A stretch of DNA of 39,388 nucleotides from Nanobdellota archaeon (GTDB lineage Archaea; Nanobdellota; Nanobdellia; Pacearchaeales; GW2011-AR1): contig JBBSYK010000020.1 in the NCBI GenBank assembly GCA_038045285.1, forward strand, positions 1-39,388. Direction: 5' to 3'. Position 1 is the stretch's first letter, and every line of letters starts with the position of its first letter. Positions 6,791 to 39,388 of this stretch are shown piece after piece. Under the pieces are notes generated by a model. That model ran no database searches. It saw only the letters and a program-made list of their open reading frames with translations, and had not been told where the DNA came from. A program made the translations under genes and the position numbers.

Positions 6791-6860
6791 GTTTATTGTG
6801 TTTCTTTCTCACTATGGACAATTCTATTGGTTGTGTTACTTGTTTTTAAGAATTATCCAT

Positions 6861-7000
6861 TAGAGAATTCTAGACTATAGAGAGCTTTGAATAACCCTCC
6901 AATTTGATATTATCTGAGGGTTTTCAAAGCGGCTCGATAGAGGACTTTAGGGGTTTTTCAAAGTCTTCTATAAGTAACATAATTACCAGAATTCTCTATA
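6861..7000. mobile_element. MITE-like palindromic element, copy 1 (two internal hairpins, short terminal inverted repeats)
   Basis: Terminal inverted repeats tagagaattcta (6861-6872) and cagaattctcta (6987-6998). Hairpin 1 spans 6884-6930 (gctttgaaTaaccctc / gagggttttcaaagc). Hairpin 2 spans 6940-6968 (gaggacttt / aaagtcttc). A second copy lies at 18246-18345. Confidence 0.6.
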
Positions 7001-7092
7001 AAATAGATATTAAAATGAGCTGTTCAATTATTATAATGTATCAACAATAACTTATTAAATATGCTTATTCATTTTATTAAAACTGTGAGAAG

Positions 7093-18239: not shown

Positions 18240-18245
18240 GAATTA

Positions 18246-18345
18246 ATTATAGAGAGCTTTGAATAACCCTTATTTTCAAATGGTTTTCAAAGCGATTCTT
18301 AGAGGATTTTTGGGGTTTTTCAAAATCCCCTATAGACTAGAATTA
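18246..18345. mobile_element. MITE-like palindromic element, copy 2
   Basis: Aligns with copy 1 across tatagagagctttgaataaccc...ggttttcaaagcg...tagagga.ttt..ggggtttttcaaa.tc..ctatag. Right end ctatagactagaatt is the inverse of the copy 1 left end. Flanked by the 9-bp direct repeat TTTGAATTA (18237-18245 and 18346-18354). Confidence 0.6.
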
Positions 18346-25476: not shown

Positions 25477-26133
25477 ATGGATTTAATTAAATTAAGCTCA
25501 AAAGAAATCGAACCAAATCCAATAATTATTGAAGCATTAAAATACATAAATGAAAACAGCTTGTTTAAAGATAAAATTGCAAAGGTTTTGGATATCGGTG
25601 CTGGAGATGGAATGGATTCTATTTTTCTAGTCAAAAATGGATTTAACGTTACAGCAATAGACTCATCATCTTATTCCATACATAAAATTAATCAACTGGC
25701 AAAGATCCATGCTATAACAATCAAATCTGCAAAATTTGATGCAATAACTTTTCCTTTTGAAACCTCAAGATTTGTATTTGCGCAACCCTCCTGCTTCAGT
25801 TCGAGAGCAAGCAAATCAAATCTTGATGGTGCTCAAGAACCCGAACACGCCCCGGACTTTAGTCCGAGGGTTCTTGACAACTACGATATAATAATATGTA
25901 TTAATGTTTTACATCTAATAAAACTAGAAGAAGCTACAGAGTTAATTAAAAAAATGAAAATGTACACTTCAGTAGGAGGCATGAATATAGTTAGCTTATA
26001 TATAAATGATGATAGTCCTCTAAATAACTTAGAAAGTTTTTATACTGATTGGAAAATCATACATTTAAATAAAAGTTTTCATAAAGTGAAAAAAAACAAA
26101 ATACTCCTAGAGTTTATCGCCGTGAAGAAATAA
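25477..26133 (+). CDS. TehB-like class I SAM methyltransferase carrying a ~39-aa in-frame insertion
   Basis: VLDIGAGDGMDSIFL, NVTAIDSS, then YDIIICINVLHLI and GGMNIV. The segment between FPFE and NYDII is a GC-rich, low-complexity insert. Confidence 0.7.
   Translation: MDLIKLSSKEIEPNPIIIEALKYINENSLFKDKIAKVLDIGAGDGMDSIFLVKNGFNVTAIDSSSYSIHKINQLAKIHAITIKSAKFDAITFPFETSRFVFAQPSCFSSRASKSNLDGAQEPEHAPDFSPRVLDNYDIIICINVLHLIKLEEATELIKKMKMYTSVGGMNIVSLYINDDSPLNNLESFYTDWKIIHLNKSFHKVKKNKILLEFIAVKK
25762..25878. mobile_element. GC-rich palindromic insertion inside the methyltransferase ORF (frame preserved)
   Basis: Nested hairpin 25834-25876: CAAGAACCC...GGGTTCTTG enclosing CGGAC-ttta-GTCCG. Shares aaccctcc, ggactttag and gagggtt with the MITE-like element at 6861-7000. 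Confidence 0.5.
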
Positions 26134-39202: not shown

Positions 39203-39388
39203 ATTATCCTCTTTAATTTAAACTTTCTCTCCGAAATACAATATATACTTTGACCTATATAAATTTATGCATGTCTTGAGCTGTAAAGTTAACGGCACCC
39301 AATAGTCAAGTTTTTAAATTTTGGGTGTTAGATGGCTTTGCGTACATATTATCTAATCTTATTGAAATAAGATAATCTTGCTCTATTG

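Follow-up and report, generated by a model that had tools for sequence, protein, structure and literature searches.

A putative PATE-like IS200/IS605 derivative read in frame within a TehB-like methyltransferase gene of a DPANN archaeon

Introduction

The closest described systems for the element reported here are non-autonomous derivatives of IS200/IS605 insertion sequences. PATEs (palindrome-associated transposable elements) are defined as elements of non-coding length that lack terminal inverted repeats, carry near-terminal palindromes and leave no target duplication (PMC3119063). IS200/IS605 elements insert 3' to a specific tetra- or pentanucleotide, and IS608 and ISDra2 move through a single-strand 'peel and paste' route in which excision is seamless (PMC5027513). 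A second point of comparison is provided by the Rickettsia palindromic elements (RPEs; Ogata et al. 2000, 2002), nearly half of whose R. conorii copies reside in ORFs; in-frame fusions of MITEs are known, and a review treats RPEs as the extreme case (PMC10969869). Among DPANN archaea, some genomes, one of them Woesearchaeal, were reported to have very high densities of MITEs in a census that relied on terminal inverted repeats (PMC11602168). A literature search of incomplete coverage returned no paper on IS200/IS605-type elements, or on in-frame copies, in Pacearchaeota.

The locus analyzed here lies in a 39,388-nt stretch of DNA from a Nanobdellota archaeon (the window), whose own assembly, G000, comprises 850,789 bases in 102 contigs and is 85% complete. 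In a preliminary description made from the letters of the window, a methyltransferase gene was proposed to be interrupted in frame by a GC-rich palindromic segment, possibly a diverged copy of a MITE-like element at 6861-7000 and reminiscent of RPEs.

Results

The methyltransferase gene remains open across the insert

The host gene (25477..26133, plus strand) encodes a TehB-like class I SAM-dependent methyltransferase of 218 aa. Its score for Pfam TehB (PF03848) is 63.4 bits, where the cut-off is 20.4, and the ORF is also matched by other profiles of class I methyltransferases. The insert occupies 25762..25878 of the plus strand, i.e., 117 nt running from ACCTC to CTTGAC, although 25763-25879 is an equally possible placement owing to a 1-nt ambiguity. 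It encodes the 39 residues TSRFVFAQPSCFSSRASKSNLDGAQEPEHAPDFSPRVLD, and the protein around it reads FPFE|TSRFV...RVLD|NYDIIICINV. Directly 5' of the insert lies the pentanucleotide TTGAA (25757..25761, plus strand), which is part of the target and not of the element.

The ORF, junctions and hairpin arms given in the preliminary description were all correct on re-reading the sequence. The same applies to composition and frame: the insert is far richer in GC (49.6%) than the remaining host gene (26.5%) or the genome (32%), and the 218-aa ORF runs through it uninterrupted. The gene is still open because the insert is a multiple of three nucleotides long and its sense frame is free of stops; in the window's subfamily, two frames of the sense strand are open and none of the three antisense frames is.

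Homologues and a syntenic orthologue lack the segment

The preliminary description had taken close family members to have no insert at this position, which was borne out: in a protein alignment it is missing from all nine methyltransferase homologues, none of which carries an equivalent segment, so that the segment is specific to the window's lineage among them. The closest homologue in a collection of 5.8 billion proteins is 179 aa long, that is, 218 minus 39. This orthologue is encoded at three metagenome loci syntenic with the window, the shared gene order being PRPP synthase, a 168-aa gene, the methyltransferase, a convergent transketolase gene and prefoldin. Nucleotide identity between the window and the orthologue locus is 87% for the methyltransferase gene and 92% for the transketolase gene. 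A syntenic gene without the insert is also present in the same-genus genome G003, and the seven further homologues lack it as well.

At the insertion point the orthologue reads ...CTCTTCAAG|AACTATGAT (...TTCAAG|) and the window ...CCTTTTGAA[117 nt]AACTACGAT (...TTTGAA[117 nt]). The junction in outgroups is FE|NYD or FE|DYN, which indicates that the Glu is ancestral, and the G003 gene has TTTGAA there. From the outgroup Glu and the G003 codons, TTGAA was very probably present in the methyltransferase gene before the insertion.

Methyltransferase matches at E <= 1e-5 were found in 14 of the 41 genomes searched (G000 included). Relatives of the neighbouring transketolase are mostly groundwater MAGs, the best at 71% identity, and by these relatives the organism is a DPANN archaeon of Pacearchaeota/Woesearchaeota type. 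The scan of genome contigs returned no methyltransferase relatives, and an exact-match scan of metagenome contigs returned no empty allele of the gene.

The insert belongs to a repeat family found in one genus

Nucleotide relatives of the insert, suspected earlier, are abundant elsewhere in the genome: 46 matches were obtained in G000 with BLAST and 53 with an nhmmer profile, and the insert is one copy of a mobile palindromic repeat. Full-length copies number 26, are ~90-97% identical to the window copy, and the family as a whole makes up 0.62% of the assembly; many matches are cut by contig ends, which makes a higher true copy number probable. Conservation among the aligned copies extends from TTGAAACCTC... 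to ...GTTCTTGACA, and their flanks are unrelated. Relative to the 123-nt consensus of the family, the window copy is changed at four positions, a divergence of ~3%.

The family occurs in 7 of 16 other same-genus genomes and in none of 24 genomes of other genera; among the genomes searched, it is restricted to one genus. An unbiased scan of metagenome DNA yielded 56 loci with 41 full-length copies, and a scan of viral contigs yielded no match.

Several longer variants were noticed in G000 (C23:2996-3304, C4:1400-1705 and C37:1279-1586), in which positions 1-105 and the last ~20 nt are split by ~180 nt of extra sequence. Other variants, on contigs C56, C92 and C64, have the right end alone in common with the element. 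At the limits of the window itself, positions 1-53 and 39335-39384 carry ~53-nt sequences in common with other contig ends, which look like assembler overlaps at breaks in repeats.

Insertion occurs 3' of TTGAA and is polymorphic between strains

Three exact pairs of empty and filled sites were recovered. In each, insertion took place directly 3' of TTGAA, no target base is duplicated, and the alleles differ by ACCTC...CTTGAC, with the same 1-nt ambiguity. A Hainich groundwater contig (L184), 99.5-99.75% identical to contig C21 of G000, is filled at two sites where G000 has no element. One of these sites is cacttgaa|atatcaac; the other, CCATTTGAA|AATAAGG, lies inside a subfamily-B copy of the 6861-7000 repeat. 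Empty copies of subfamily B read ...GAAAACCATTTGAA|AATAAGGGTT..., and contigs C101, C84 and C2 are filled at the same point. A pair within the genome, C101 (filled) versus the 18240-18345 copy of the window and others (empty), gives identical boundaries. The window's unoccupied target site, CCATTTGAA|AATAAGG, is located at 18268..18283 of the minus strand, in the hairpin loop of its second 6861-7000-family copy, a member of subfamily B. Since insertion is polymorphic between near-identical strains, the element is recently mobile.

TTGAA precedes 33 of 42 left ends in G000 (TTGA, 41 of 42) and 36 of 41 left ends of metagenome copies. In other species of the genus, the subfamilies follow TTAAT or TTGAT, and every one terminates in GTTCTTGACA. 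TTGAA is also present in unoccupied sites.

A fourth strain difference in the presence of the element was observed between L194:1034-1156 and C99:7087-7475 of G000. In this pair, the left junction of the filled allele contains ~10 bases (GGATTTTGA) that the empty allele lacks, and the pair was left out of the exact set.

Hairpins lie near both ends

Fold prediction places a long hairpin at the left end (25762..25830, plus strand; stem TCAAGATTTGTATTTGC / GCAAATCAAATCTTGA) and a nested hairpin at the right end (25833..25877, plus strand). The latter has an outer stem formed by CAAGAACCC (25834-25842) and GGGTTCTTG (25868-25876) and an inner stem GCCCCGGAC-TTTA-GTCCGaGGGT, whose core CGGAC-ttta-GTCCG spans 25853-25866; it is followed by the conserved terminus TTCTTGAC(A). 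Folded as single-stranded DNA, positions 25757-25879 reach -25.1 kcal/mol (z = -5.4), and none of 200 shuffles was as stable.

Covariation was assessed in an alignment of ten subfamily representatives from across the genus. Compensatory double changes affect 9 of 15 pairs of the left hairpin, and 6 of 9 pairs of the right inner stem covary, with variants GGAC/GTCC, CCAC/GTGG, GGAA/TTCC and ATACAC/GTGTAT among the subfamilies. Cells of the alignment are paired in 91.3% of cases versus 78.6% in shuffles, and controls with slid partners give at most 54%. Changes on both sides were seen in 15 of 30 pairs, where 9.0 +/- 1.5 were expected and none of 500 shuffles reached 15. These patterns indicate that the hairpins near both ends are kept by compensatory changes.

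Rfam returned a match to the HEARO RNA on the minus strand of window 25774-25878, with 21.9 bits against a gathering score of 83 (E = 0.014). HEARO belongs to the IscB branch of IS200/IS605 elements; the sub-threshold match is probably due to chance.

The termini match an insertion sequence that carries a Y1 transposase

The 117-nt element holds at most ~40 codons in any frame, too short for a transposase. Its ends, ACCTCAAGATTTG... and ...GGTTCTTGACA, show no extended terminal inverted repeats, with the minor caveat that a 6-nt inverted motif, TCAAGA/TCTTGA, occurs near both ends, offset from the termini, so that this absence is not absolute. The terminus GGTTCTTGACA is the right end of a 644-bp IS in the same-genus genome G015 (locus L141), and it also occurs at contig ends of G000. 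This IS follows TTTAAT|, ends in ...GGTGACCAGTGGTTCTTGACA and encodes a 136-aa TnpA in which the HVH motif and the tyrosine are present. Its right-end 11-mer is identical to that of the element, while the left end is similar, not identical. An IS of genome G006, likewise carrying TnpA, has the right end ...AAAGTTCTTGACA, i.e., ...GTTCTTGACA, and nCnnCAAGAATT(C) occurs at the left end both of the 644-bp IS and of several subfamilies of the element. The target of the IS is TTAAT versus TTGAA for the window's subfamily.

Four contig ends of G000, each with a different flank that closes with TTTAAT, extend into the left end of the G015-type IS, and a further three contigs open with its right end. 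These stretches are 94-98% identical to the G015 IS. Rebuilding the interior from overlaps of G000 contig ends gave no joins, and it apparently lies outside the G000 bin. A tblastn search of the 85%-complete G000 with the G015 and G006 TnpA returned distant matches only as candidates for a cognate tnpA. The nearest Y1 gene of G000, located on C96, shares 32% identity with the G015 TnpA, and its flanks are different. Altogether G000 contains four Y1 (HUH) transposase genes, one of them intact, and no similarity to the element was detected in the flanks of the four. TnpB (PF07282) has no match in the G000 assembly; the search of G000 for Y2 transposases (PF04986) gave zero matches, as did its control search.

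The label 'MITE-like' puts the insert in the wrong class, given the lack of target duplication and of extended terminal inverted repeats and the match of its termini to an IS with a Y1 transposase. We consider it likely that the insert is a PATE-like non-autonomous derivative of an IS200/IS605 element, a reading that includes its in-frame, near-neutral insertion into the methyltransferase gene.

Other hairpin repeats of G000 were observed alongside. The intact Y1 gene is of IS200 type (C96:1676-2119, 146 aa), and a copy of another hairpin repeat (C96 2052-2119; the third repeat of the next section) lies directly upstream of it; the ends of this locus differ from those of the 117-nt element, and it may represent a second pairing of a Y1 gene with a hairpin repeat. 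Further short families terminate in the same TCTTGACA, preceded by a hairpin. Among these, the one that ends in ...TTATGCCCGAAGGGCATTATCTTGACA after a different hairpin (C47:19490-19604; also on C8, C9, C21, C27 and C80), occupies on C47 the same 6861-7000-family loop site as the 117-nt element.

The 6861-7000 repeat is a separate family

The repeat at 6861-7000 is ~97 nt long (6876-6972) and has true terminal inverted repeats. At least 10 copies exist, six of them full length at 92-99% identity. In the window it is nested in a third hairpin repeat (6840-6878 and 6968-7005), which was seen contiguous elsewhere (C1 23740-23809; C25 898-965).

The three words that had suggested kinship with the insert are really present in both, but they are not collinear, and no alignment of the two sequences is significant (best E = 1.2). 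The proposal that the insert is a diverged copy of this repeat was rejected on that basis, and the two are treated as separate families. Subfamily B of the ~97-nt family, which includes the copy at 18240-18345, has a TTGAA target in its hairpin loop; the element inserts into this loop, which accounts for the frequent adjacency of the two families.

A minority of copies is read in frame within other genes

In-frame cases were sought by a peptide search and by the unbiased metagenome DNA scan. Of the 26 full-length copies in G000, only the window's clearly lies within a gene that could be assigned to a family, and a few more make up the tails of ORFs. In metagenomes, 5 of 41 full-length copies are in frame with Pfam-supported host domains. 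One copy sits between the AAA_14 and DUF4143 domains of an ATPase, with host matches on both sides, and two-sided matches were also obtained for Dph2-like and PRiA4-like proteins. Copies adjoining a single domain match were found in a hemerythrin, a MazG-like protein and a HerA-like ATPase (as a C-terminal tail). In a related metagenome organism (L192:120-2756), 10 residues separate an element that is read through from the catalytic domain of leucyl-tRNA synthetase; with ATG starts only considered, there is no start between the element and this domain, and the 39 residues may be present at the N terminus of the enzyme. In a NUMOD3 protein, one copy is read in the other open frame. No antisense-read copy was encountered among the element copies found in genes. 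A search of the genus for a Dph2 orthologue to pair with P0019 gave element matches only.

Subfamilies of G003 and G005 have stops in the frame used by the window copy, which argues that coding capacity is not conserved across the family. Selection for coding capacity across the whole family was considered and rejected, as several subfamilies have stops in frame. Although genomes as small as these are expected to be gene-dense, most copies lie between genes, which points to removal of most genic insertions.

The insert is predicted to form a loop before strand beta-4

The AlphaFold model of the 218-aa protein has a mean pLDDT of 81.7 and a pTM of 0.77, with a core above 90. Residues 97-121 and 126-131 fall below 50, which may be due to the gap in every other row of the alignment at this place, and the stretch from strand 83-86 to strand 136-141 has no predicted secondary structure. 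The 39 extra residues are thus modelled as a low-confidence loop before strand beta-4; the preliminary description had raised a surface loop, and a loop is what the model predicts. The best PDB matches of the model are TehB structures 3m70 and 2xva (Foldseek, E 1e-11 to 1e-12). In class I methyltransferases, the N-terminal end of beta-4 is found on that side of the sheet which faces away from the SAM site.

Motif I (VLDIGAGDG) and the conserved core residues are intact. Amino-acid changes number 12 on the window branch and 13 on the orthologue branch, i.e., there is no acceleration. The dN/dS ratio is 0.36 for the methyltransferase versus 0.13 for the neighbouring transketolase, and some relaxation of selection on the former may have occurred. 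Judged by its sequence and model, a functional methyltransferase that bears the insert is plausible.

Discussion

We propose a 'peel and paste' mode of movement for the element, in the form of single-stranded DNA and with TnpA supplied in trans. The enzyme would bind the hairpins and cut beside the conserved flanking and terminal motifs. One copy would have landed in sense orientation at TTGAA (codons Phe-Glu), in the link between beta-3 and beta-4 of the methyltransferase. With a net gain of 117 nt and no stop in the sense frame of the window's subfamily, the gene would have stayed open, and the protein would have gained a 39-residue, probably flexible loop just before beta-4. Given the class I topology, the SAM site should be remote from this end of the sheet. 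It is probable that the insertion is tolerated as a near-neutral passenger and does not represent an adaptation.

The alternative to be taken most seriously is that insertion inactivated the methyltransferase and that the open frame marks a young pseudogene that has yet to decay. The higher dN/dS of the gene than of its neighbour would fit, and so would a copy so close to its consensus that insertion may be recent; frames that are not conserved across subfamilies would make the coding capacity fortuitous, and a protein matched in only 14 of 41 genomes is probably dispensable. Set against this are a gene free of stops and frameshifts with SAM motif I and core residues intact, the absence of any acceleration on its branch (12 versus 13 changes), a core modelled with pLDDT above 90 in which the insert falls between strands, and sibling copies that persist in frame in other genes. 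We regard inactivation as possible but doubtful.

The remaining readings concern the nature of the repeat. A REP-like element handled by a domesticated RAYT-type Y1 enzyme, as opposed to a mobile IS200 derivative, would agree with the Y1 transposase genes present, with palindromic, mostly intergenic repeats and with another hairpin repeat directly beside the intact C96 gene. We hold it to be very unlikely, as the unit is 117 nt with two different hairpins and not a 20-40-nt palindrome, its termini are those of a multi-copy 644-bp IS with its own tnpA, and its insertion is polymorphic between 99.5%-identical strains. A classical MITE, related to the 6861-7000 element and dependent on a DDE transposase for its movement, has only a slim chance of being the right reading: the three common 7-9-nt words, the short TCAAGA/TCTTGA inverted motif and the frequent adjacency of the families speak for it, but the similarity is not significant, the three exact site pairs show no target duplication next to a fixed 5' flanking pentanucleotide, and adjacency is accounted for by insertion into the loop of the other repeat. 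Scarcely credible is an ancestral or lineage-specific protein loop, or an insert spliced at the RNA level such as a bulge-helix-bulge (BHB) intron. The preserved frame and the position between strands would be expected of either, yet the same DNA occurs ~50 times, mostly between genes, and all homologues are without the segment. The intron was rejected on reading the junctions, since the 3' exon lacks the complement to the first intron bases that a bulge-helix-bulge needs.

A PATE-like IS200/IS605 derivative thus remains our preferred reading. Whether in-frame residence forms part of how the family persists in gene-dense DPANN genomes, with insertions reversible through scarless excision, is a further matter, and we think it rather unlikely. 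Were it so, subfamilies of 3n length and free of sense stops would sit in genes as extra loops, and a Y1-transposase route would lead to RPE-like 'protein-coding palindromes' and provide a source of new disordered loops.

In-frame landing of a mobile element is a known kind of event, while the element family is new. It offers a concrete, testable mobilisation route for RPE-like in-frame insertion, comprising a Y1 transposase, a TTGAA target and scarless insertion. It also indicates that recently mobile non-autonomous elements are present in DPANN genomes of very small size and high gene density, and that near-identical strains from groundwater differ in them. For annotation, two warnings follow: the elements break assemblies at contig ends, and they add ~39 residues foreign to the ancestral protein to predicted proteins.

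Comparison with known systems

The likeness to RPEs drawn in the preliminary description holds, by description, for the event and its effect: in both cases a palindromic repeat of 100-150 bp lies in frame in unrelated genes and adds a peptide at fold-compatible positions (PMC10969869). It does not extend to the extent of ORF colonisation, which is far rarer here (1-2 of 26 copies in G000 and 5 of 41 in metagenomes), nor to open frames, which are not conserved across subfamilies. Unlike for RPEs, a mobilisation route can be proposed for the present element.

With IS608 and ISDra2, which are moved by a Y1 HUH TnpA (PMC5027513), the element shares a left end placed 3' of a tetra- or pentanucleotide without duplication, subterminal hairpins on one strand, and empty and filled sites that differ by exactly the element. 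It differs from them in having no transposase gene and in its target, TTGAA instead of TTAC; compared with IS608, the feet of its hairpins are nearer to the ends, and the distance from foot to cleavage site is shorter at the left end.

The closest match is to the PATEs of Haloquadratum walsbyi and other non-autonomous IS200/IS605 derivatives (PMC3119063; PMC7290912). Like the element, they are without extended terminal inverted repeats. PATEs and the element alike carry palindromes near both termini, create no target duplication, have a conserved terminal oligonucleotide in common with IS200/IS605-type elements, and form a homogeneous family (>90% identity) with strain-specific insertions and nesting with other small repeats. 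The element differs in its host, a DPANN (Pacearchaeota-like) archaeon with a genome of less than 1 Mb, and in its partner, a TnpA-only IS of IS200 type, with no TnpB match in the assembly. Several copies of the present family are read in frame inside genes, a situation for which the accessible part of the PATE account has no mention.
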